Shown here in pieces: positions 6,817 through 52,967 of a stretch of 64,000 nt of DNA; positions within the stretch are counted from its first letter, which is position 1, and every line of letters begins with the position of its first letter. Origin of the DNA: an uncultured Candidatus Saccharibacteria bacterium (GTDB lineage: Bacteria; Patescibacteriota; Minisyncoccia; Phycocordibacterales; CAYSCM01); the NCBI GenBank assembly GCA_964429815.1, contig CAYSCM010000001.1:352001-416000 (forward strand), given 5' to 3'. The translations under genes and the position numbers were made by a program. The notes under the pieces were generated by a model. The model ran no database searches. It was not told the origin of the DNA and worked only from the letters and a program-made list of their open reading frames with translations.

Positions 6817-8066
6817 ACGAACGAAACGCTAATTCAATAGAGGAAATCCTCACGCGCGGAAAAAGCGTCCGGCTTTCTGATTTTGAAAAGGGAGAGATGC
6901 GCAAATCCCTCATCAACACGATGGAGACTACTTCGTCGCGACCCCGCATATATCGCCAAGCGCGTGCTCTTTCTTGGAGTTATCTTTCGATGCGGGTGAG
7001 CGTCGCTTCGCTCCTCGTGCTTTTCCTCGGGGCTGGGACGTCGTTTGCGGCTCAGAGCGCGGTCCCGGGCGACGCACTATATCCCATCAAAGTCGGTGTG
7101 AACGAAAAAGTCGAAATTTTCCTTGCTAGGAGCCAAAAAGCGCTCGCCGAAGTAACCGCCAAGCATGCGCTCACGCGCCTTACGGAAGCGGAGACCCTCG
7201 CGTCGGAAGGAAAGCTCGACCCCAAGAAGAAATCCGAGGTCGAACAGCGTTTCTACAAAAACGTGGCCGATCTGCGCGGGAATCTCAAGAAATTGGAGGG
7301 GAGCGGCGACTACGCGGCGGCGACCAACGTGAGCTCCTCCTTCGAGGAGGGTCTTGGTGAGCATCTTGGTGCCTTTGTCAATCTCTCCGGAAACATTGCA
7401 ACGGCAACGCCCGAAGTAGCCGCCATTGCCGACTCGGTGGGCAGCGAGCTCCAGTCGACCCAGAACGAGCGGGTAGCGATCTCTGAGCGGGAAATCTCCG
7501 AAGCGGCGACGACCACGCTCGCGCAAGTCCGTGCCGCTTCGGATAGCGCGCAGAAGAAAATCGCGGACGTTGAAGCGTTCGTGTCCCAATCTTCCTCCTC
7601 GACACCCTCCCCGGTATCTGCCGTTGTCACTGAGCGTCTTAGCGCTGCAGAAGAACTCTTTGCGCGCGCGGTGGCCCTTCAAAATGCCGGCTCCTACGGC
7701 GAAGCGTTCGCGCTCTTTAGGGAGGTGCAGTCGCAAGTACAGGACGTCAAACTCCTCACCATTTTGGGTACGAAGGTAAAGCGCGGACTCACGGTGCGCT
7801 CCGCTCAAGGGGTCGCAACAAGCTCGCTCACGGGTTTTCCCAAAAAGGGAGAGGAAGGCTCGGGTGAAAAGGTCCAGGTACGTGCGGAACTCGCCCCCCA
7901 ACCAAAGGCCGCCGAGCTCGACATCAACGGTGAGCTGCGACAATCCGCTGATGAAAAATCATTGAGCACCAGCAGCGAAAGGAGGGGTATCAAGATACAG
8001 ATCGATCGAGATGGGGAGCAGAGAGACGAGGAAAGCTCCGGCGTTCATCTCAATATCGATCTCTGA
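6813..8066 (+). CDS. DUF5667-like anti-sigma-factor-type membrane protein
   Basis: ATGA overlap with the sigma factor stop (translational coupling); cytoplasmic N-term, single TM (VSVASLLVLFLGAG), long A/E/K-rich extracytoplasmic domain. Confidence 0.6.
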   Translation: MNERNANSIEEILTRGKSVRLSDFEKGEMRKSLINTMETTSSRPRIYRQARALSWSYLSMRVSVASLLVLFLGAGTSFAAQSAVPGDALYPIKVGVNEKVEIFLARSQKALAEVTAKHALTRLTEAETLASEGKLDPKKKSEVEQRFYKNVADLRGNLKKLEGSGDYAAATNVSSSFEEGLGEHLGAFVNLSGNIATATPEVAAIADSVGSELQSTQNERVAISEREISEAATTTLAQVRAASDSAQKKIADVEAFVSQSSSSTPSPVSAVVTERLSAAEELFARAVALQNAGSYGEAFALFREVQSQVQDVKLLTILGTKVKRGLTVRSAQGVATSSLTGFPKKGEEGSGEKVQVRAELAPQPKAAELDINGELRQSADEKSLSTSSERRGIKIQIDRDGEQRDEESSGVHLNIDL

Positions 8067-8124
8067 AATTTTGATACCCGACCGAGAGCCGGTCGTCTTC
8101 CTCAAGGAGGGGTACAATAGCCGG

Positions 8125-9267
8125 ATGGAGCCGCTCGCCTCGAAAATACGCCCCGAACAACTTTCTGACTTTTTCGGCCAGGAACATTTGGTCGGGAAGG
8201 GTAAGCCTCTGCGCGAGGCGATCGAAGGAGGGCACCTCTTCTCCTTCATCCTCTGGGGACCTCCCGGCTCCGGAAAGACCACCCTCGCGCGCATCTACGC
8301 AAAAGCCCTCAATGCCGAGTTCCACGAGCTCTCCGCCGTCGACTCGGGAAAGGACGACATTAAGGCGATCGTCGGGAAACGCGGCCAACTTGCGCTCGGC
8401 AAACCCAAGGTCCTCTTTATCGATGAGATACATCGATTCAACAAAGCCCAGCAGGATTTCCTGCTGCCGTTCGTCGAAAAAGGAGAACTCACGCTCATCG
8501 GGGCGACGACTGAAAACCCTTCTTTCGAGGTCATCCCCGCGCTTTTATCCCGCTGCCGCGTTTTTGTCCTCTCGGAGCTTTCAGAAAAGGATATGGAAAA
8601 GATACTCAAGCGGACGGGCTTCAAGATGGGCAGCGAGGCTAGAGGGTGGCTTATCCGGCAAGCAGGAGGTGATGCACGACAGGCTATAACGACGCTTGAA
8701 GCGGCGCACCGCCTCTACGGAAAAATTTCCGCCGAAACGCTCAGAGAGACCATTCAGAGCACGCACCTGCGGTACGACAAGAAGGGGGAAGAACACTACA
8801 ACACCGTTTCCGCGTTCATTAAGAGCATGCGTGCCTCGCAACCCGATGCGGCCCTCTACTATCTCGCACGGATGATCGAGGCAGGAGAGGACCCGCTCTT
8901 CATTGCACGCCGCATGGTCATTTTCGCAAGCGAGGACGTTGGCCTAGCCCAACCGACAGCGCTCGTCGTCGCCAACGAAGTGTTTCGGGCGTGCGAGACG
9001 ATAGGCTACCCTGAGTGCGCCATCAACCTTGCCCATGGCACTGCCTACCTTGCGACAGCGAAGAAAAATCGGGACTCCTACAATGCCTACCTTGCAGCAA
9101 TGGACGACGTGAAGACCTACGGCAACCTCCCCATACCGCTTAAGGTGCGCAATGCGCCGACAAAGCTTATGAAGGAGCTCGGGTACCACAAGGGCTACAA
9201 ACTCTATGACAGAGAAAGCTACCTTCCGGAAAAATTGAAGGGAAAAAAGTATCTCGGCGGGACCTAA
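8125..9267 (+). CDS. rarA: replication-associated recombination protein A (AAA+ ATPase RarA/MgsA)
   Basis: Walker A GPPGSGKTT, Walker B LFIDEIHRF, MgsA C-terminal helical domain; start trimmed to MEPLASKIRPEQL. Confidence 0.9.
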   Translation: MEPLASKIRPEQLSDFFGQEHLVGKGKPLREAIEGGHLFSFILWGPPGSGKTTLARIYAKALNAEFHELSAVDSGKDDIKAIVGKRGQLALGKPKVLFIDEIHRFNKAQQDFLLPFVEKGELTLIGATTENPSFEVIPALLSRCRVFVLSELSEKDMEKILKRTGFKMGSEARGWLIRQAGGDARQAITTLEAAHRLYGKISAETLRETIQSTHLRYDKKGEEHYNTVSAFIKSMRASQPDAALYYLARMIEAGEDPLFIARRMVIFASEDVGLAQPTALVVANEVFRACETIGYPECAINLAHGTAYLATAKKNRDSYNAYLAAMDDVKTYGNLPIPLKVRNAPTKLMKELGYHKGYKLYDRESYLPEKLKGKKYLGGT

Positions 9268-9290: not shown

Positions 9291-9917
9291 ATGCACAGAA
9301 ACCTCATCGTCGGCTTCATCGCTCTTAGTGTCCTCGGGGTAGGCGGATACCTCCTCGTGGGAAGGTCTTTCTTGGGATCGGAGGTGAGCAGGAACCCTTC
9401 AGGACCGATGCAAAGTGGTTCCTTCCGCTCTCTTGCCGCGAGCGTGGCGCCGCGGCGCTGTTCCATCATAAGCGGCAGCGGCCCCTCTGCGACTAACGGA
9501 GTGCTCTACATCGCTTCGGGAAACGTCCGTGGCGACTTTACGGGCTCGGCGGGAGCCGGAAGCGTGGAGAGCCACATGATAGTGAAGAGGAATGTGAGCT
9601 ACATCTGGAGCTCGGCGACGGCGCAAGGTTTCAAGATGAGCGTCCCCTCGGCGTCCTCTGGCGGACAGGAGAGTGTCTCTGGGAGCCTCTCCTACGACCA
9701 GACGGTAGAGTATTCCTGCGAACCTTGGAGTGTCGACCAGTCGAAATTTTCTCTCCCGACGGGGATTTCCTTCTCCGACGTCTCTCAAGTGCAAAGCGGC
9801 GCCGCCGGAGCGGCCGGGAATGAGGGTCTGCGCGGAACGGCCGAGCAGTGCAAAGCGTGCGAGAGCCTCTCCGGCGCCCAGAAGGCGCAGTGTCTTGTCG
9901 CGCTCTCGTGCCAGTAA
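9291..9917 (+). CDS. hypothetical secreted protein with Cys-rich C-terminus
   Basis: 208 aa; N-terminal TM/signal IVGFIALSVLGVGGYLLV; C-terminus CKACESLSGAQKAQCLVALSCQ. Confidence 0.5.
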   Translation: MHRNLIVGFIALSVLGVGGYLLVGRSFLGSEVSRNPSGPMQSGSFRSLAASVAPRRCSIISGSGPSATNGVLYIASGNVRGDFTGSAGAGSVESHMIVKRNVSYIWSSATAQGFKMSVPSASSGGQESVSGSLSYDQTVEYSCEPWSVDQSKFSLPTGISFSDVSQVQSGAAGAAGNEGLRGTAEQCKACESLSGAQKAQCLVALSCQ

Positions 9918-27492: not shown

Positions 27493-27873
27493 CTCGCACC
27501 CTACCGTCTCAGAAGCGACTGAAGGGAAGTAATGAAAACCGGGATGCTTAAAATTCCCGTCAGGTATTCTACTGATGTGTAGGCCTCTCCCGTTTTAAAG
27601 ATGTCATGGAAAAGGAGAAAATCAACGAACAAAAAGCCGACTATTAAAACAATGTCGAGTAGTTTTCTCATGCTCACATAACTAGTATACAAAGACTGGG
27701 TTTCTTAGCGGTCGGCGTAATTGTGTGTTACAACTCTTGGGTATTTAGGAGGCGTCGCATGGTGCTTTGAACCGTAGGTTTAAAGAGCTGGAGGCGCGAC
27801 GGCGGCGAGGCGGGGTCGCGGAAATTTTCAGTAGAAAATTATCCGTGACCTAGTGCACATTTGTTTGCAGGGC

Positions 27874-42493: not shown

Positions 42494-42566
42494 GCCGAGG
42501 TAGCTCAGTTGGTAGAGCATTTGTCTGAAGAACAAAGGGTCGCCGGTTCGATCCCGGCCCTCGGCA
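42494..42566 (+). tRNA. tRNA-Phe (anticodon GAA)
   Basis: Acceptor GCCGAGG/CCTCGGC, D-arm gctc-agttggta-gagc, anticodon stem tttgt/acaaa loop ctGAAga, T-arm gccgg-ttcgatc-ccggc, discriminator A. Confidence 0.9.
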
Positions 42567-42573
42567 CAAAATT
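42552..42573 (+). repeat. direct repeat copy 1 (tRNA-Phe 3' end, tcccggccctcggcacaaaatt)
   Basis: 22-bp segment spanning the tRNA-Phe T-stem 3' side, acceptor 3' strand, discriminator and 7 nt beyond; repeated identically at 42735-42756. Confidence 0.9.
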
Positions 42574-42734
42574 GAAATTGCCTGGACTGGCTCCAGGCAA
42601 TTTCAACTTCTGATGAGGGATCGAACCTGGAAGGGGTCGGGAAACGGGAGTTTCCCGTCGAGGAAAACAGCGAGCTTGCGAGCGTTAGAAACCGCGGGTT
42701 TCTAAAGAGCTGCGCAGCAGCTCAGGAGTGAGAT

Positions 42735-42756
42735 TCCCGGCCCTCGGCACAAAATT
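42735..42756 (+). repeat. direct repeat copy 2 (tRNA-Phe 3' end)
   Basis: Identical 22-mer 183 bp downstream of copy 1. Confidence 0.9.
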
Positions 42757-42827
42757 ATGGGTTGTTTTTTACAAACCTAGTCTGTATTTACGTCGGCACC
42801 ATAGGGTGGCCAGAAAGGAAGGTTGCT

Positions 42828-43136
42828 ATGGACCATAGCAATCATCAAGTACAAGAGCGTAACCATCAGGCATGTGCCCACGGCATGTGTCTGAATCACG
42901 ACCCGCAATGGGAGAAGGCAGAAGAAAGGCACTTCGAGCCTCGCCCGATGTGGTTCGGCCTCTATCAGGTCTATTGGACCGTACGTTGCTGCGGAAAGGC
43001 GATGAGGCGGGTTAAGGAAGTGATCACTCAACGATGCGCGAAGTGCGGCAGGTTTGGCGAAAAAGTTACAAAGTGGGAAATTGCACTTTGCTCCTGCTGC
43101 GGTCATCACGTAGATATGGGCGGTAGCTCACTGTGA
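42828..43136 (+). CDS. hypothetical His/Cys-rich small protein (putative metal-binding, zinc-ribbon-like C-terminus)
   Basis: 102 aa from ATG 42828 (aggaagg SD); MDHSNHQVQERNHQACAHGMCLNHD... CCGK... CAKCGRF... CSCCGHH; lower GC than neighbours. Confidence 0.45.
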   Translation: MDHSNHQVQERNHQACAHGMCLNHDPQWEKAEERHFEPRPMWFGLYQVYWTVRCCGKAMRRVKEVITQRCAKCGRFGEKVTKWEIALCSCCGHHVDMGGSSL

Positions 43137-47004: not shown

Positions 47005-47030
47005 GGGCCGCCCGCAGGGGCGGCCCTTTT
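47005..47030 (+). terminator. rho-independent terminator
   Basis: gggccgcccgcaggggcggccc + tttt. Confidence 0.75.
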
Positions 47031-48192
47031 ATATGAGCGAAAGGTTTCCTTCAGCGATAAAGTCTGCAGCGTTGGAAGCACCAAATTTCTTAAGCCGAAA
47101 GTATCCCGCCGCGGCTATCATGACCGCGTTATCAGTCGTGAGTTCCCGCGCGGGAATAAAAAGTTTTGCTCCCGGGAAATCTTGTGTGATCATCGCCTCA
47201 ATTTCTTTCCGAATGTTGTTGTTAGCAGACACGCCACCGCCCACAACAAGTGTTTTCGCGCCGCGCTCGTTCATCGCTCGGCGCGTCTTGCCGACGAGCA
47301 CGTCGGTCACGGCGTCCTCGAACTCTCTTGCGAAGGTTTCTTTCGTTTGGTCGGAAATCTCAGACAGCTCGCGGAGTGCATAGAGCGCGGCAGTTTTAAG
47401 CCCTGAGAACGAAAAATCGCAATTATTTGCCGAAAGCATGGGGCGGGGAAGCTGTATTGTGCCGCGGGCGTTTTTTGCACGGGCGGATTCAGCGAGTTTC
47501 GAGATCTGCGGCCCGCCGGGGTAGGGAAGCCCGAGCATGCGGGCGACTTTGTCGAACGCTTCCCCCACCGCATCATCGAGTGTCGAGCCGACAAGCTCAT
47601 AGGTGAGCCAGGCTTTCATAAGGACGAGCTCGGTGTGCCCGCCGGAAATGAGGAGCGCGAGTGCGGGGAATTCTATGTTCCCTATTTTGCCTTCTCGAAT
47701 GAGCGACGAGATGACGTGACCTTCCATGTGATTGATGGGGACGGTAGGGAGGCCCCATGCGAGCGCAAGCGCTTTTGCGAAATTGATGCCTACCCACAGC
47801 GCCGGCTCGAGCCCGGGGCCCGATGTCACGGCAATGGCATCAAGCGGCGGCTTCTCGTACGATTCGAAAAAGCCTACGAGAAATCGCGCCAAGTCATGCT
47901 CGCGTTCAAGAAGCTTTTCGATAGTCGCGCGAGCGTCATCGGATAGTTTTGAAGCACTGACATCGAGCATTCCCGCCTCCTCAAGAGCCTTGGTGAGGAT
48001 GGGGATGAGGTTTTTAGCATGTTCGCGCTTGGCGAGTGCAGGGAACACACCGCCGTATTCCCTATGTATCTCGACTTGCGAAAGGACGGCATTTCCAAGC
48101 ACGGTAAAACGGGCGTTTCCGATTTCGCCCTCCGCGTCGACTATGCTCACCGCGGTCTCATCGCAGGAGGTTTCTATGGCGAGGATTTTCAT
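47029..48192 (-). CDS. tsaD: tRNA N6-adenosine threonylcarbamoyltransferase TsaD (Kae1/Gcp family)
   Basis: MKILAIETSCDETAVSIV start, HMEGH and GGVSAN motifs; start 48192 chosen because it gives the ATGA overlap with the upstream NUDIX gene (ORF track allows 48228). Confidence 0.88.
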   Translation of the reverse strand: MKILAIETSCDETAVSIVDAEGEIGNARFTVLGNAVLSQVEIHREYGGVFPALAKREHAKNLIPILTKALEEAGMLDVSASKLSDDARATIEKLLEREHDLARFLVGFFESYEKPPLDAIAVTSGPGLEPALWVGINFAKALALAWGLPTVPINHMEGHVISSLIREGKIGNIEFPALALLISGGHTELVLMKAWLTYELVGSTLDDAVGEAFDKVARMLGLPYPGGPQISKLAESARAKNARGTIQLPRPMLSANNCDFSFSGLKTAALYALRELSEISDQTKETFAREFEDAVTDVLVGKTRRAMNERGAKTLVVGGGVSANNNIRKEIEAMITQDFPGAKLFIPARELTTDNAVMIAAAGYFRLKKFGASNAADFIAEGNLSLI

Positions 48193-48620
48193 AATGCTTC
48201 GTTGGAGATCTTCTTTTGCAACCAACAATCAATAACCCGTTTGCTTGAGGTAAACATTGGGGAGGGGAGATTCTTCGGGTCGACCCATTTCCAGTTCCTG
48301 CTTTTTTCCGGTTCAGCATCATATGGTTCGCCTTTTTCTGACTCAGCGAGAATTCCAATGGTGACGTAGTGCTTGTTTTTCGCAGGGTAAAAAATAATAT
48401 CGTTGTTGACGCAAATAATCCCTTTTATTCGAATATCTTTGAGTCCGGTTTCTTCTTGAACCTCCTGCCGAGCGCAATCGGCAAAGGATTGTTCAAATTC
48501 TAAATGGCCTCCAGGTATTTGGAATGTTCCTGCTCCGCCGGACTTAGATAGGCGCTCCCCAATGAGGATGGTATTGCCTCGAGTTATCAAAATTCCGATG
48601 CCGATGTATGGTCGATCCAT
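48189..48620 (-). CDS. NUDIX hydrolase
   Basis: Nudix box GGHLEFEQSFADCARQEVQEETGL. Confidence 0.82.
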   Translation of the reverse strand: MDRPYIGIGILITRGNTILIGERLSKSGGAGTFQIPGGHLEFEQSFADCARQEVQEETGLKDIRIKGIICVNNDIIFYPAKNKHYVTIGILAESEKGEPYDAEPEKSRNWKWVDPKNLPSPMFTSSKRVIDCWLQKKISNEAL

Positions 48621-48621
48621 G

Positions 48622-48640
48622 GTGCGCGGTAAGGGACTCG
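48622..48640 (-). repeat. direct repeat copy (tRNA-Val 3' end, gtgcgcggtaagggactcg on + strand)
   Basis: 19-bp identical copy of the tRNA-Val acceptor 3' side/discriminator region, 198 bp downstream (tRNA sense) of the tRNA and 1 nt from the NUDIX start codon. Confidence 0.9.
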
Positions 48641-48819
48641 GTCACGAATAATCTACTCGTCGTCGCTCGCAGATTTTCGCGACCCCGGCTCGGTATCAAA
48701 AGCTGCTGCTTTTGATATACCTGCGCCCTTCGAGTCCCTTATGGAAGCGACACTGGTCGCTTCCTCCCGCGCAACAACGAAATTAAAAAACGATGGCAGA
48801 AGCCATATTTTTTAATTTA

Positions 48820-48838
48820 GTGCGCGGTAAGGGACTCG
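48820..48838 (-). repeat. direct repeat copy within the tRNA-Val 3' end
   Basis: Same 19-mer inside the tRNA-Val gene. Confidence 0.9.
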
Positions 48839-48893
48839 AACCCCTGGCCCTTCCCACGTCAAGGGAATGCTCTACCAACTGAGCTAACCGCGC
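48821..48893 (-). tRNA. tRNA-Val (anticodon GAC)
   Basis: RC fold: acceptor GCGCGGT/ACCGCGC, D-arm gctc-agttggta-gagc, anticodon stem ttccc/gggaa loop ttGACgt, T-arm agggg-ttcgagt-ccctt, discriminator A; followed (minus sense) by a hairpin + U-run terminator 48781-48818. Confidence 0.85.
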
Positions 48894-49575: not shown

Positions 49576-49662
49576 GGAGAGGTGGCTGAGTGGTCGAAAG
49601 CGGCGCCGTGCTAAGGCGTTAGGGGCGAAAGTCTCTCGTGGGTTCGAATCCCACCCTCTCCG
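49576..49662 (+). tRNA. tRNA-Ser (anticodon GCT)
   Basis: Acceptor GGAGAGG/CCTCTCC, D-loop GG, anticodon stem gcgcc/ggcgt loop gtGCTaa, long variable arm, T-arm gtggg-ttcgaat-cccac, discriminator G. Confidence 0.9.
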
Positions 49663-49664
49663 CA
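49645..49664 (+). repeat. attL-like repeat (3' end of tRNA-Ser GCT)
   Basis: cgaatcccaccctctccgca. Confidence 0.8.
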
Positions 49665-49715
49665 AATGTTGCCTATAGGGACAGAACAATCTCGATTTCC
49701 TGTTATACTTTCGTT

Positions 49716-50441
49716 ATGGCGAACCTTGAAGGAGGACCCAATTCGAACGTCGAAAAAGAAAAGAAAATCCGAGAAGCAGAACAAGAGCTTGATTCAATCG
49801 ATCTGAATCCGGACAAACTTCGCCCTCTCTCGCCTGATGAGATCCACAGTCTTCATAGTAACCTCGCCGATCTTCTCTACTCAGCAGAAACAACTAGAAC
49901 GTTAGCTGACTTACCGGACTCTCCCGAAATTCGAGGGATCAGTGGGGAAGAACAAACCCGAATTGCGATTCAGAAACTCCATGAACGCGGTCAAGAGCTT
50001 CTTAAGAAGACCATTGACGACGAACGACTCCGTGCCGACCTGACTGAAAAAATTAGAGAGTATCATCGCTCAAACTGGCGTGAGGCTTTTGCGAATGAAA
50101 TCACCCAAGGACGAACGCCTTTCGGCGATGCGAGTAACTCGATTATTGAATTTTACCGAACCAAGGGGATCAATATTGAGAATCCGACGGAAGAGGACAT
50201 TGATAAGTATTTTGAGCGAAAAGAATACGACGCTGCAGCATTTGGCCTTGAATTTAAACGCCGACGTCGAAAACAGTTTGCGGATATGGATAACCAGAAG
50301 TTTTCCGATTTTCAAAGTTTATTTTGGCGGATGTTTAGGGTGCCTGATGGGCATGGATGGTTCACAACCCTTATGAACGGCAAGGCGTTTGTGCAGAAGC
50401 TCGACGAAATCAACGAAGCTCTGAAGCATAAAACTCCATAG
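49716..50441 (+). CDS. hypothetical protein (island cargo)
   Basis: 241 aa from MANLEGG (ORF-track N-terminus overlaps the tRNA and was trimmed); acidic, helical, low GC. Confidence 0.5.
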   Translation: MANLEGGPNSNVEKEKKIREAEQELDSIDLNPDKLRPLSPDEIHSLHSNLADLLYSAETTRTLADLPDSPEIRGISGEEQTRIAIQKLHERGQELLKKTIDDERLRADLTEKIREYHRSNWREAFANEITQGRTPFGDASNSIIEFYRTKGINIENPTEEDIDKYFERKEYDAAAFGLEFKRRRRKQFADMDNQKFSDFQSLFWRMFRVPDGHGWFTTLMNGKAFVQKLDEINEALKHKTP

Positions 50442-50773
50442 GGGCATAGGAGACTGTGTTTATTTATGCCAACACGATACCACTTTTTCTTTTTCTAGCC
50501 TGTATGGCCGATTTCCACGCCATGCAAAAGACAGATCTCTTTGATACACTCTAATCGCTCCATGAAGATTGGATCGCGTAGCTGTATCCGGGTTCGAACA
50601 TCGTTCAGGCCTGCCCGCTCGGACCGGTAAATGTCCAGATAGGTCAATTTTGAAAAAGAGCCTTATGAAATGGGCCTCTTTTTCGTCTCCCAAATTCGCC
50701 AAAAAGGTTCGAATCCTAACCAGTCTCTGCTTCCTCACCTTGGTGATGTATATTTAGGCCATCATTTTAATCT

Positions 50774-51427
50774 ATGGTGCCAACCGAGATTATCCTGGCT
50801 AGTGTAAGTTCTCCTTTTGAAATTGGCGCACAAATCGCCGAGATTATTATTGCGGCAGGGACAATTGTGGGGCTCGGGTTTTCGATATGGTTTTCGCGAA
50901 GAACTCTGCAACGATCGGATTGGAATTCAATAATGACTACCGCTCCCAGCATTGCGATCGAGTGTCGTAGTGATGGATTTTGGTTGAATGATAGGCCAAC
51001 TGCCGGAGGTTCTTGGGGAGAGCCCACACGCCATCTCGAACCTTCAGGAAAGTACGTCACCTTCGCGTTGAGATTTAGAATCTCAAATCAGGGGAGGGGT
51101 CTAGCACTTGCTATTAAGCCCGAAGTTTCTTGTAAGGCGAAAGCTTGGGTGGGAGGGATTCAGAATTTCCCTGTTTGGATGGGCACCGACAATGAGGACA
51201 AATCAGATCTTGCTGTTGACATACAGGAAGAGGACTTCAAATGGCTCGAACTGATGAAAAATCCTTTGCATTTGGCGCTGAGCATTAGCTACAAAAATGA
51301 CCAGGGCAACATTGCTTGCACCTCTAGGTGGTCGGCTAACCTGCAACCGTTTACAGTTAATGGAACTCGTCTTGAAATATGCCGGGACCGAATCCAAGAG
51401 CCTAGTATGCAAATTACTTATAGTTGA
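50774..51427 (+). CDS. hypothetical membrane-anchored protein (island cargo)
   Basis: 217 aa with N-terminal TM, low GC. Confidence 0.5.
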   Translation: MVPTEIILASVSSPFEIGAQIAEIIIAAGTIVGLGFSIWFSRRTLQRSDWNSIMTTAPSIAIECRSDGFWLNDRPTAGGSWGEPTRHLEPSGKYVTFALRFRISNQGRGLALAIKPEVSCKAKAWVGGIQNFPVWMGTDNEDKSDLAVDIQEEDFKWLELMKNPLHLALSISYKNDQGNIACTSRWSANLQPFTVNGTRLEICRDRIQEPSMQITYS

Positions 51428-52107
51428 CTCGAAAAACTGTGAAATTCGAACTCAAAAAAATCAGAAGAAACACCCCAGATGACGAACTTCTTAGTGATCT
51501 GAAAACTACAGCAACAAAGTTAGGACAGCAATTTGTCACGAGGGCTCAGCAGGACCAATTTGGAAAATTTGATAGCTCGAACATGTCGAGGCGACTAGGG
51601 GGATGGGCAAAAGCTCATGAGCGTGCTGGTCTTAGGCTTGCACGTCATCAAAAGAGTCTGAAAGCTTCAGAAAACGAACTATTGCAAAATTTGGAAGAGG
51701 TTTGGACAAGGCTAGGACGACAACCGAATAGTCAGGATATGTTTGCTCCTATCTCACGCTTTGGCGTGAGTGCGTATAAACGCCACTTCGGCAGTTGGAT
51801 GAAAGCTCTCGAGAAGTTTGTTTCGATCGCAAATTTTGAGGGTGCTTTGACAAATGGATCGGATGAGGAGACTGTTGTTTCTGGGTCAAAGCGTAGGACA
51901 AAGCGAGAAGTCAATTGGAAGACGCGCTTTCTTGTAATGCGTCGGGATAATTTCAAATGCAAAAGTTGTGGACGGTCACCGGCTACGGACGCTGGAACTA
52001 TTCTCAATGTGGATCACATAAAGGCCTGGGCGAATGGGGGTGAAACTGTCCTAGACAATCTACAGACCCTATGTGCGGTCTGTAATCTGGGCAAAAGCAA
52101 TCTATAA
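51424..52107 (+). CDS. HNH endonuclease with N-terminal tandem helix-turn-helix-like repeats
   Basis: C-terminal HNH motif VMRRDNFKCKSCGRS...VDHIKAWANGGETVLDNLQTLCAVCN; two N-terminal repeats (...RRLGGWAKAHERAGL / ...KRHFGSWMKALEKF); 4-nt overlap with the upstream gene. Confidence 0.72.
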   Translation: MTRKTVKFELKKIRRNTPDDELLSDLKTTATKLGQQFVTRAQQDQFGKFDSSNMSRRLGGWAKAHERAGLRLARHQKSLKASENELLQNLEEVWTRLGRQPNSQDMFAPISRFGVSAYKRHFGSWMKALEKFVSIANFEGALTNGSDEETVVSGSKRRTKREVNWKTRFLVMRRDNFKCKSCGRSPATDAGTILNVDHIKAWANGGETVLDNLQTLCAVCNLGKSNL

Positions 52108-52247
52108 GGCATCCGGCGGCAACCCCATTCCTTCCTGTTTCAATATCCAGCGGATTTCCTCGCTCAATAATCACTCCTAGACAATCACACACGTTTTGGT
52201 TGTATGTGCTCAGAAGTACATTTGGCCATGCAAGGGAGTGTCTGCTA

Positions 52248-52517
52248 ATGAGCATGAAACCTACCCGCATAACTTTTGAAAATCCAAAATACGGCAAGGT
52301 TGAGTGGACTTTGCCCGAACACGTTGAAACAGCGCTCGCCGCCAATGCTTCATCAAGTGCTGAGATGGAGGAGGCGGTGAAATTCTTAGCACGAACAACA
52401 GCCAAAGTGTTCGGCACGATTGTCTATTGCTTCACTCTAGGCAAATTGCCTGACCTCGACGCTTTCCTTGGTCAATTCGCGGAAAAAGGCGAAGCGAAGC
52501 CACCACCCTCTCACTGA
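52248..52517 (+). CDS. hypothetical protein (island cargo)
   Basis: ~89 aa from MSMKPTRITF. Confidence 0.3.
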   Translation: MSMKPTRITFENPKYGKVEWTLPEHVETALAANASSSAEMEEAVKFLARTTAKVFGTIVYCFTLGKLPDLDAFLGQFAEKGEAKPPPSH

Positions 52518-52555
52518 GACTTTCAGGACGTACCCTAGCGGTACGTCCCTTCTTT

Positions 52556-52732
52556 TTAGTCAGACAGCTCCTTACCGTCTCGTCGGATTTCTTCCCGCAC
52601 CCACTCTCGAAGCCTCGCCTTTCTAACGGCTTCCTTTTCCAGTTTTCGCATCTCCTTCTCACTCTTGTCCGGCCAGTCAATTTTCACACCCTGGCGAGCG
52701 CAAACACGTTTGATAAGATGAAAGCGCTCCAT
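52556..52732 (-). CDS. hypothetical small basic protein (island cargo), start inside internal repeat B
   Basis: MERFHLIKRVCARQGVKIDWPDKSEKEMRKLEKEAVRKARLREWVREEIRRDGKELSD; a truncated homolog (MERLECIKEICLLHGVEIGHTG) starts at 50563 (-) inside repeat A. Confidence 0.35.
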   Translation of the reverse strand: MERFHLIKRVCARQGVKIDWPDKSEKEMRKLEKEAVRKARLREWVREEIRRDGKELSD

Positions 52733-52947
52733 GAACGATGGCTCGCGTAGCCATAGCCGGGTTCGAACGTCGTTCAGGCCTGCCCGCAACGGTTTGTAAG
52801 AATGCTCCGGTGGAGCATTCACGCAAAGCGTCGGATTTGTCGTGAGGTGGGATTCGAAAGGCGGAGCCCGACAAACGCAAAGCGTTTGTTTCGGGCGAGC
52901 CCGGGCAGGAGCCACTTTCCGCCGGAGGCGGATTAGTGAGCTGACGC

Positions 52948-52967
52948 CGAATCCCACCCTCTCCGCA
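52948..52967 (+). repeat. attR-like repeat (copy of tRNA-Ser GCT 3' end)
   Basis: Identical cgaatcccaccctctccgca 3.3 kb downstream. Confidence 0.8.

Follow-up and report, generated by a model that had tools for sequence, protein, structure and literature searches.

The 198-bp unit that follows the tRNA-Val(gac) gene in a 64,000-nt stretch of an uncultured Candidatus Saccharibacteria bacterium (contig CAYSCM010000001.1, positions 352,001 to 416,000; this whole stretch is hereafter called the window) is probably a gene-less, non-autonomous miniature of the integrative elements that occupy tRNA T-loops in Patescibacteria, and it would be moved in trans by a large serine recombinase. This reading is carried by the anatomy of the locus, by a family of similarly built copies at many other tRNA genes, by a covarying and strand-specific folded module, by the uninterrupted site found in relatives, and by larger relatives that bear cargo or recombinase genes. 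An earlier note on this DNA had already seen a defined element type rather than random remnants, a view supported by further instances, by the 35 anticodons at which they occur, and by a conserved covarying structure; the insertion into the T-loop, with displacement of the native tRNA end, was not recognized in that note.

In the proposed course of events, the element would insert between T55 and C56 of the tRNA T-loop and would bring its own copy of the tRNA from position 56 to the 3' end, leaving the tRNA intact. The original 3' end would come to lie beyond the element and would remain attached to the ATG of the NUDIX-tsaD operon, its neighbor before the insertion. In the tRNA-sense strand, an antisense arm of the element would pair with this displaced end, and a hairpin termed P3 would stack directly on the resulting helix. 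The mobilizing enzyme would most likely be a large serine recombinase acting in trans, similar to those that full-length relatives encode at their tRNA-proximal end. Tandem arrays would arise when the rebuilt tRNA is targeted again.

The tRNA-Val Locus

The locus lies on the minus strand (48893-48618) and is described here in the tRNA sense. The tRNA-Val(gac) gene (48820..48893) is intact, according to ARAGORN and to the Rfam tRNA model (67.2 bits); its positions 1-55 would be native and positions 56-74 supplied by the element. These last positions coincide with the left copy (48838-48820, attL side) of an exact 19-bp repeat, CGAGTCCCTTACCGCGCAC, which would, thus, be the element-borne replacement for the 3' end of tRNA-Val. 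The right copy (48640-48622, attR side) forms the 3' strand of the closing helix of the folded module. As the flanking bases differ between the two copies on both sides, the repeat is exactly 19 bp long. The left copy runs into a terminator; the right copy is followed by a single C and then by the NUDIX ATG at 48620-48618 (junction GCGCAC-C-ATG). The layout previously drawn for this locus, with a tRNA, a terminator hairpin, spacer hairpins, and a 3'-end copy 1 nt before the NUDIX ATG, is confirmed by ARAGORN, Rfam, the exact repeat, and folding, and the two spacer hairpins quoted in it are real. The periods of 198 bp here and 183 bp at tRNA-Phe are also as claimed.

Between the two copies, the unit begins with an A-tract/hairpin/T-tract bidirectional terminator (48818-48780), which has a terminator-like score on both strands and would end the rebuilt tRNA-Val transcript; a terminator-type hairpin also follows the tRNA in most family members. 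Next comes the outer part of the antisense arm, GCGCGGG (48772-48766), which is antisense to the acceptor 3' strand of the copy and pairs with 48622-48630 in both the minimum free energy and the centroid structures. A perfect insert hairpin found by folding (48764-48743, GGAAGCGACCAGTGTCGCTTCC) separates it from the inner part, TAAGGGACTCG (48741-48731), which repeat search and folding identify as antisense to T-loop and T-stem residues 56-66. The 13-nt inverted copy of the T-arm noted earlier is indeed present, at 48741-48729. Its reading as a T-arm copy only was too narrow, as this segment and GCGCGGG (48772-48766) are together antisense to nearly the whole 19-nt copy, split by the hairpin at 48764-48743. 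The rest of the spacer folds into an AAG junction with helix P1' (GGC/GCC), enclosing a GCAG...CGAG internal loop and hairpin P2 (TATCAAAAGCAGCAGCTTTTGATA; 48730-48687), and into hairpin P3 (GGGGTCGCG...CGTGAC; 48686-48641), which ends right at the native-copy junction and holds the conserved G.U pair of the family.

The region 48622..48749, comprising the antisense arm, the three-way junction, and the sense copy, is a full-length match to the family covariance model R1 (55.9 bits, E = 1e-11, model positions 1-102), the Val element being absent from the R1 seed alignment. Spacer and copy fold at -101.8 kcal/mol, compared with -62.5 +/- 4.2 kcal/mol for dinucleotide shuffles (z = -9.4). The 198-bp unit itself (48819-48622) contains no gene and has no room for one. 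Apart from tRNA, no Rfam 15 family was found in the window region or in 26 element-holding loci, even at E <= 1.

The genes beyond the right copy belong to the host and lie outside the element. They are a NUDIX hydrolase gene of 143 aa (48189..48620, minus strand) and, 3' of it, tsaD (47029-48228, minus strand), both identified as open reading frames (ORFs) with Pfam matches, to NUDIX and TsaD respectively, on an identical contig. The earlier note had raised the possibility that the promoter of this pair lies inside the element; a simple consensus scan found no sigma-70-like promoter there. Since no separate promoter was found, the module probably lies in the NUDIX-tsaD leader at this locus.

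Which of the two copies is native can be judged from relatives. In 20 related element-free loci, the distance between the end of tRNA-Val(gac) and the ATG of the following gene, which is often tsaD, is -1 to +6 nt. Because the tRNA-Val end abuts an ATG in these 20 relatives, and the window keeps that junction at the right copy only, the right-hand copy is, on this comparative evidence, the displaced native tRNA-Val 3' end. The order tRNA(1-55), copy, terminator, antisense arm, scaffold, and native copy is the one expected from a crossover of a small circle at T55|C56. The uninterrupted site is present in the 20 related loci, and none was seen within the same species. In the relatives L003-L082, the genes after tRNA-Val include tsaD, an MRPKRH... 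protein, and others, and in some the ATG overlaps the encoded CCA. The abutting of tRNA-Val end and ATG suggests leaderless mRNAs whose 5' ends may come from tRNA 3' processing. The tRNA 3' end may commonly double as the 5' boundary of the next mRNA in this lineage, a constraint that elements inserting there would face.

A Family of Elements at tRNA Genes

The comparison set consisted of tsaD-containing loci from 80 genomes, by which the organism is assigned to Patescibacteria (Paceibacteria/Kaiserbacteria-like), with a best TsaD identity of 63%. In the window and these loci, 14 of 128 tRNAs, including tRNA-Glu, -Ser, -Val, and -Arg, have an exact 14-23-bp copy of their own 3' end 88-233 nt downstream, and relaxed searches of the related loci add decayed copies. 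The common plan is, in order, the tRNA, usually a terminator-like hairpin, an antisense arm ending in ...TCGAA (the T-loop complement), the scaffold, and the sense copy. From these related loci, a scaffold pattern was derived (TCGAANGNCGGAG, 8-38 nt, CGAGNCGGGG), which matched at least 120 stretches in metagenomes. Among the matches listed, 86 of 122 have a same-strand tRNA at most 200 nt upstream of them, with 35 anticodons and almost all amino acids represented, and 64 of these 86 then carry a copy, of at least 12 nt, of the 3' end of that tRNA. The copies nearly always begin with CGAnTCC at T-loop C56 and run to the tRNA end plus 0-6 nt, and, among the matches listed, insertion is always 3' of the conserved T-loop GGTT. 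The element period is mostly 130-200 bp in these metagenome matches; the flanking repeat varies in length from 14 to 25 bp, and miniature forms span 136-233 bp.

Covariance model R1, built from 24 aligned minimal-form copies, recognizes 111 copies in 100 metagenome loci. In all, the search for further instances yielded about 18 more in the 80 related Patescibacteria loci, more than 100 in metagenome contigs, and two more module copies in the window. A chance match as the source of the repeat at tRNA-Val is excluded, because dozens of further tRNAs, from other genomes, show this arrangement too.

Several observations point to mobility of the family. Tandem arrays, with two or more units behind a single tRNA, occur in L148, L163, L170, and L173, and the 9.5-kb locus L102 has an element at 3/3 of its tRNAs. 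Over a 47-nt stretch of scaffold, the tRNA-Val element of L010 and the tRNA-Ser element of L026 are 97.9% identical, compared with 70-79% identity for the coding DNA of the two genomes. Decay is also seen, for example, in the tRNA-Val copy of L027, both arms of which have drifted independently.

The family can account for a recurrent oddity of Patescibacteria genomes, namely incomplete copies of tRNAs and extended, structured 'intergenic' sequences behind tRNA genes, sometimes behind every tRNA of a contig, which are otherwise mis-annotated or ignored. A viral origin was considered and rejected: the strict scaffold pattern has no match in IMG/VR, and the Val element matches phage and plasmid records over the tRNA itself only. 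Where no tRNA was called upstream of a copy, a split or intron-containing tRNA was also considered, by fusing T-loop-like sites further upstream with the downstream copy; none of these joins was called as a tRNA by ARAGORN, and this candidate was rejected. In L129 and L182, tRNA-Glu-like 3' ends (…CTGTAGGGTCAC) follow an aberrant T-loop region (GTTCTGAAAGCC) upstream of the scaffold, with no tRNA call by ARAGORN.

Other scaffold types occur as well. Among L010, L016, L045, and L140, one type reads GACCTTGTGAG...CACAAGGTGTAC and has its junction at T-loop 59|60 (…CGG|TCCC); a further type, GGAGCCACTT...TTAGTGAGCTGAC, is found in the tRNA-Ser(gct) island of the window, in L003, and in L044. L140 holds two scaffold types in tandem.

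Structure of the Folded Module

The proposed fold consists of a closing helix formed by the antisense arm and the sense copy, a 3-bp P1' around a GGA/GA internal loop and P2, a GGG linker, and P3, which, in the 24-copy alignment, ends exactly at the sense-copy junction. Covariation supports this fold. The score of the 24 seed copies is 0.445, compared with 0.164 for shuffles and 0.08-0.18 for slid partners. For 109 distinct sequences, it reaches 0.474, compared with 0.150 for shuffles (0 of 500 reach 0.474) and 0.08-0.10 for slid partners; this larger alignment was fitted to the model and leans towards the structure, a bias from which the seed result is free. Across the 109 sequences, P1' is paired in 99.7% of cases, its middle pair being CG in 45, AU in 30, GC in 24, and UA in 8. 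P2 is paired in 97.1%, P3 in 92.0%, with double changes at 13 of its 15 pairs, and the closing helix in 74.1%, with double changes at all 19 of its 19 pairs. One P3 pair is G.U in 100/107 sequences.

The antisense arm covaries with the sense copy in the 109 sequences and pairs best with its own tRNA (-21.8 kcal/mol, compared with -14.7 kcal/mol for non-cognate tRNAs). No base of the 3' strand is left unpaired where P3 meets the closing helix, and P1'/P2 leave the fold opposite the junction; the strand that leads from the right arm of the element into the tRNA 3' arm is, therefore, fully paired. Many members have an optional hairpin where the acceptor and T-stem parts of the antisense arm meet, with the loop CUGC in 21 elements, and the scaffold hairpin loop AGCA is frequent, rarely together with CUGC. 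Kissing of the insert-hairpin loop CUGC with the scaffold loop GCAG was considered and dropped, because the two co-occur in 3/82 only.

The fold is strand-specific. The tRNA-sense strand out-folds its complement in 104 of 105 copies, with a mean gain of 8.5 kcal/mol and 194 G.U pairs versus 45, and the structure is, therefore, formed in a single strand of tRNA-sense polarity, RNA or DNA. Compensatory changes, strand asymmetry, and the conserved G.U pair fit RNA and a folded single DNA strand alike, and do not distinguish between them. The catalog of structured modules is extended by one that is known from 109 distinct sequences, has strong covariation and one near-invariant wobble pair, and is absent from Rfam.

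Larger Relatives and Serine Recombinases

Larger elements with the same ends can be delimited by their flanking repeats. The left tRNA 3' copy, and the terminator, antisense arm, and scaffold on the right, are common to the Val miniature, L136, L211, L153, and the cargo island of the window. L153 is a 2.9-kb relative at tRNA-Ser(cga), similar to this island. Three complete relatives encode recombinases. The 5.45-kb element L136, at tRNA-Tyr with a perfect 21-bp repeat, encodes a protein with Resolvase, Recombinase, and zinc-ribbon domains. The 4.68-kb element L160, also at tRNA-Tyr (repeat of 19 bp), and the 3.26-kb element L211, at tRNA-Leu(gag) (repeat of 19 bp with 1 mismatch), encode recombinases of a second, divergent clade; the module of L211 is hit at E = 1e-14. 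Taken alone, the L160 protein is matched weakly (Pfam Resolvase E = 0.004, hhalign probability 9.6%, no PDB hit), and it is considered a serine recombinase because its homologues carry Resolvase and Recombinase domains. In all three, the recombinase gene lies antisense beside the tRNA, and the terminator/antisense-arm/scaffold module lies at the far end. The Val copy is classified as non-autonomous because it has no recombinase of its own and L136, L160, and L211 do.

In 13/13 recombinase genes examined, from both clades, the last 12-42 nt overlap the antisense tRNA 3' end. As the last codons lie in the tRNA T-arm, the C-terminus of the protein would differ between the integrated and excised states. 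The two large serine recombinase clades of Patescibacteria count 2675 and 472 homologues at the thresholds used (L203-L211, L075, L136, L153, L160). The genes of both clades terminate within a tRNA gene, where they reach the most conserved sequence in biology, which makes the T-loop a candidate near-universal landing site. No DEDD (IS110), TnpB, or IscB gene was linked to the elements, and no Y1 transposase was found in the bounded ones; no tyrosine recombinase was seen in the bounded elements either, with no systematic search made for it.

An unusual arrangement surrounds some of these genes. The recombinase gene of L136 is flanked by a 150-bp inverted repeat, 100% identical (8061-8210 and 9667-9816 in oriented coordinates), which includes its own C-terminal coding region, and an inverted repeat is also found around the recombinase gene of L205, upstream of 8378. 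Each arm adjoins a T-arm-like site, which looks like the layout of an invertible segment.

Proposed Mechanism and Alternative Explanations

From the relatives with recombinase genes, we infer that a serine recombinase is the mobilizing enzyme. Because a gene-less element keeps only what it needs in cis, the conserved core would serve the cycle of the element; the folded module would, thus, act in cis within the life cycle of the element itself, either as RNA or as a folded DNA strand at the attP arm, and would not serve the host. A more specific proposal, which we regard as rather unlikely, is that the module is an RNA or folded-DNA cofactor or substrate of the large serine recombinase, with arms matched to the occupied tRNA and the crossover at the three-way junction; the donor arm would then be held in P3, and the tRNA 3' arm in the closing helix. 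If the module does take part in recombination, this would be the first serine recombinase to depend on a folded single strand or RNA, and, under the cofactor or substrate proposal, it would amount to serine recombination that depends on structure or is programmed by RNA, with the universally conserved T-loop of tRNAs as its target.

Several points weigh against the reading as a miniature element with a cis-acting module, moved in trans by a serine recombinase. The att sites of these enzymes are normally duplex DNA of about 40-50 bp, and no large serine recombinase is known to require RNA or a folded single strand. In the 64-kb window, there is no homologue of the clade-1 (L136) serine recombinase that could act in trans in this genome. 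In eight other recombinase loci, each covered over about 5-12 kb on the element side, exact and relaxed repeat searches and R1 gave no module and no tRNA-end repeat at the far side. As the module is present in three bounded relatives and absent from these eight loci, the link between recombinase and module is real and not universal; the two could also be separate element types that share one target and sometimes stand in tandem. The insertion showed no polymorphism in the population of the window, from which two other contigs are identical across the element. The scaffold invariants TCGAA, CGGAG, and CGAG.CGGGG are partly set by the search pattern itself. Finally, a terminator lies directly upstream of the module, with no promoter found between them, and no conserved -10-like motif was present between terminator and antisense arm in 40 inspected copies; read-through from the tRNA would, therefore, be the source of any module RNA.

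The position of this terminator, with no promoter upstream of the module, would suit an element that acts as single-stranded DNA, in which the folded tRNA-sense strand mimics a duplex site for a tyrosine recombinase or for an HUH/Y1 transposase of the IS200/IS605 type. The strong strand specificity of the fold, the hairpins beside both ends, the insertion always 3' of the T-loop GGTT, the pairing of the top strand on both sides of the junction, and the abundance of gene-less derivatives, reminiscent of the hairpin-only PATEs of IS200/IS605, are all in line with it. Nevertheless, only serine recombinases are linked in cis, neither a tyrosine recombinase nor a Y1 transposase being seen in the bounded elements, and a G.U pair kept in 100/107 copies is more typical of RNA. 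A flanking repeat of 14-25 bp is present, and, to our knowledge, IS200/IS605 elements make none of this kind. This explanation is, overall, improbable. A somewhat different use of the tRNA-sense strand would be a host processing signal, in which the antisense arm rebuilds an acceptor/T-arm minihelix, and a 3'-end enzyme cuts after the discriminator, freeing a leaderless or near-leaderless NUDIX-tsaD mRNA. The tRNA-Val locus invites it: a single nucleotide separates the copy from the NUDIX ATG, 20 relatives show the abutting of tRNA-Val end and ATG to be ancestral, it is the transcribed sense strand that carries the structure, and no separate NUDIX-tsaD promoter was found. The wider family makes it quite improbable. 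The module is not a host leader in general; it is equally common with a convergent next gene or with none (33 co-oriented, 23 convergent, and 10 without a next gene, compared with 35/23/23 for element-free tRNAs). It accompanies 35 types of tRNA, forms tandem arrays, and also closes cargo islands, and a simple helper of processing would not need a conserved P1'/P2/P3 core. Host processing may be a secondary benefit at the NUDIX locus rather than the reason for the module.

A conserved scaffold with variable arms that match the local tRNA also recalls a programmable guide RNA, whose arms would specify the target tRNA and the element end, in the manner of IS110 bridge RNA or TnpB omega RNA. The module does hold sequences complementary to the donor arm (P3) and to the 3' arm of target or donor, near-identical scaffolds are found at different tRNAs, and its place in the non-coding end of the element is that of IS110 and TnpB guides. 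The putative guide segments are, however, paired together in long stable helices rather than exposed in loops, no segment corresponds to the part of the tRNA that lies 5' of the junction, linked genes for DEDD (IS110), TnpB, or IscB are absent, and Rfam gives no match to bridge or omega RNA, all of which makes a guide very improbable. The simplest account would be a deletion scar, left by an ordinary prophage or island after internal deletion, with incidental hairpins: no gene is left, and duplication of a tRNA 3' end is the normal footprint of integration (PMC9897764). More than 100 copies with one covarying structure and a narrow size range effectively refute it; the fold has a z of -9.4, and the module also stands at the ends of intact cargo elements. 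The non-autonomous miniature, moved in trans by a serine recombinase, is the reading retained below.

Comparison with Known Systems

Duplication of a tRNA 3' end is the usual footprint of integrated elements (PMC9897764). Islands and prophages of the T-loop class (Williams 2002; Reiter 1989; cited in PMC9897764) resemble the Val unit in having an intact tRNA and a displaced partial 3' copy in direct orientation, an identity block running from the T-loop to or past the 3' end, a restored gene, and tandem accretion at the rebuilt site. They are, however, kilobases long, and the well-studied ones have tyrosine integrases, whereas the Val unit is 198 bp long and gene-less. In the literature searched, no description was found of a strand-specific three-way-junction module with an antisense tRNA arm in this class.

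The tycheposons of Prochlorococcus (bioRxiv 10.1101/2020.12.28.424599) are likewise cargo islands in streamlined genomes, located at tRNA genes, with partial tRNAs and tandem stacking. A large serine recombinase is found in 27 of 937, and most tycheposons use tyrosine recombinases (bioRxiv 10.1101/2020.12.28.424599). They belong to a different phylum, and neither gene-less miniatures nor a structured non-coding module is mentioned in that work (bioRxiv 10.1101/2020.12.28.424599). Group I introns in Patescibacteria tRNA genes (PMC13011429) are tRNA-associated insertions in the same phylum. They lie at position 35/36 in the anticodon loop and interrupt the tRNA (PMC13011429), whereas the present family leaves the tRNA intact, inserts at T55/C56, and has no Rfam intron match.

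With miniature inverted-repeat elements (MITEs) and with cis-mobilizable elements (CIMEs), which derive from integrative conjugative elements, the family shares small size, lack of genes, multiple copies, ends common to larger gene-bearing relatives, and presumed mobilization in trans. MITEs have terminal inverted repeats and a short target duplication of fixed length, whereas the ends of this family are not mutual inverted repeats, and its flanking repeat varies from 14 to 25 bp; the CIMEs described are far larger than the Val unit. In contrast to both, the family retains a folded single-strand structure, and not just duplex ends for recombinase binding.

SCCmec-type elements are moved by a large serine recombinase (Ccr), integrate in a conserved gene at its 3' end, which they restore, and are flanked by direct repeats. 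Recombinase-less pseudo-SCC relatives and composite tandem islands are known for them. Their target is rlmH instead of tRNAs, and they are not known to have an RNA-like module or a miniature form of 140-230 bp. The integration footprint of the family is classical for islands that target tRNAs, with tycheposons and SCCmec-like elements as its nearest analogues in life-style.

As regards the fold, the module may resemble integron attC sites and the attP(+) site of CTX phage, which present a recombination site as an imperfect duplex through a strand-specific fold, with conservation of structure and not of sequence. They are substrates of tyrosine recombinases (IntI, XerCD), whereas this family is linked to serine recombinases and folds into a three-way junction whose branch coincides with the junction point. 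The PATEs derived from IS200/IS605 have no flanking duplication and are linked to Y1 transposases, unlike the family, which has the repeat and no Y1 in its bounded elements. In IS110 bridge RNA and TnpB omega RNA, guides are exposed in loops or ends, whereas the arms of this module are paired together. In the full-text literature searched, no description was found that combines miniature forms, a covarying three-way junction, and tRNA-matched arms; the family is, thus, apparently undescribed, and widespread in Patescibacteria.

Other Copies in the Window

The sister element at tRNA-Phe(gaa) (42552..42756, plus strand), delimited by repeat search and folding, has a 22-bp repeat (42552-42573 and 42735-42756), a hairpin (42574-42604), an 11-nt inverted T-loop copy (42617-42627), and a divergent structured spacer. 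The kinship of the Phe and Val units, proposed earlier from their layout, holds for that layout, which is common to both; it does not extend to close sequence similarity of the spacers. R1 has no match in the Phe spacer (42574-42734), which fits none of the modeled scaffold types. Directly after this element lies a putative gene, a cysteine-rich ORF of 124 aa (42762-43136) with only a weak, sub-threshold DUF7130 match.

A decayed scaffold module without intact arms (27764..27868, plus strand; R1 49.9 bits, E = 4e-10) lies 5 nt upstream of tRNA-Ser(gga). It has no tRNA upstream of it, and it is also conserved in L027 (858-918).

The third copy ends a 3.3-kb cargo island in tRNA-Ser(gct) (49645..52967, plus strand), bounded by a 20-bp repeat, CGAATCCCACCCTCTCCGCA, whose two copies of the tRNA 3' end lie at 49645-49664 and 52948-52967. 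The island is low in GC (0.457 at 50-52 kb of the window) and ends in the terminator/antisense-arm/scaffold module (R1 hit at 52838-52967). None of its encoded proteins is a recombinase; the cargo consists of an HNH endonuclease with homing-endonuclease repeats (51424-52107) and three proteins without a Pfam match. A degenerate T-arm copy at 50706-50721 suggests that two units stand in tandem here. The island also contains a 79-nt direct repeat, 82% identical (50540-50618 and 52709-52787), which ends in a pseudo T-arm (CCGGGTTCGAAC...GCCCGC) followed by a hairpin. It resembles the modules made of a pseudo tRNA 3' end plus a terminator that precede the scaffold in other cargo elements, with AAAATAGGTTCGAGC...GCAC in L114, L136, and L179, and variants in L133 and L202; in L205, such a module lies upstream of the recombinase gene.

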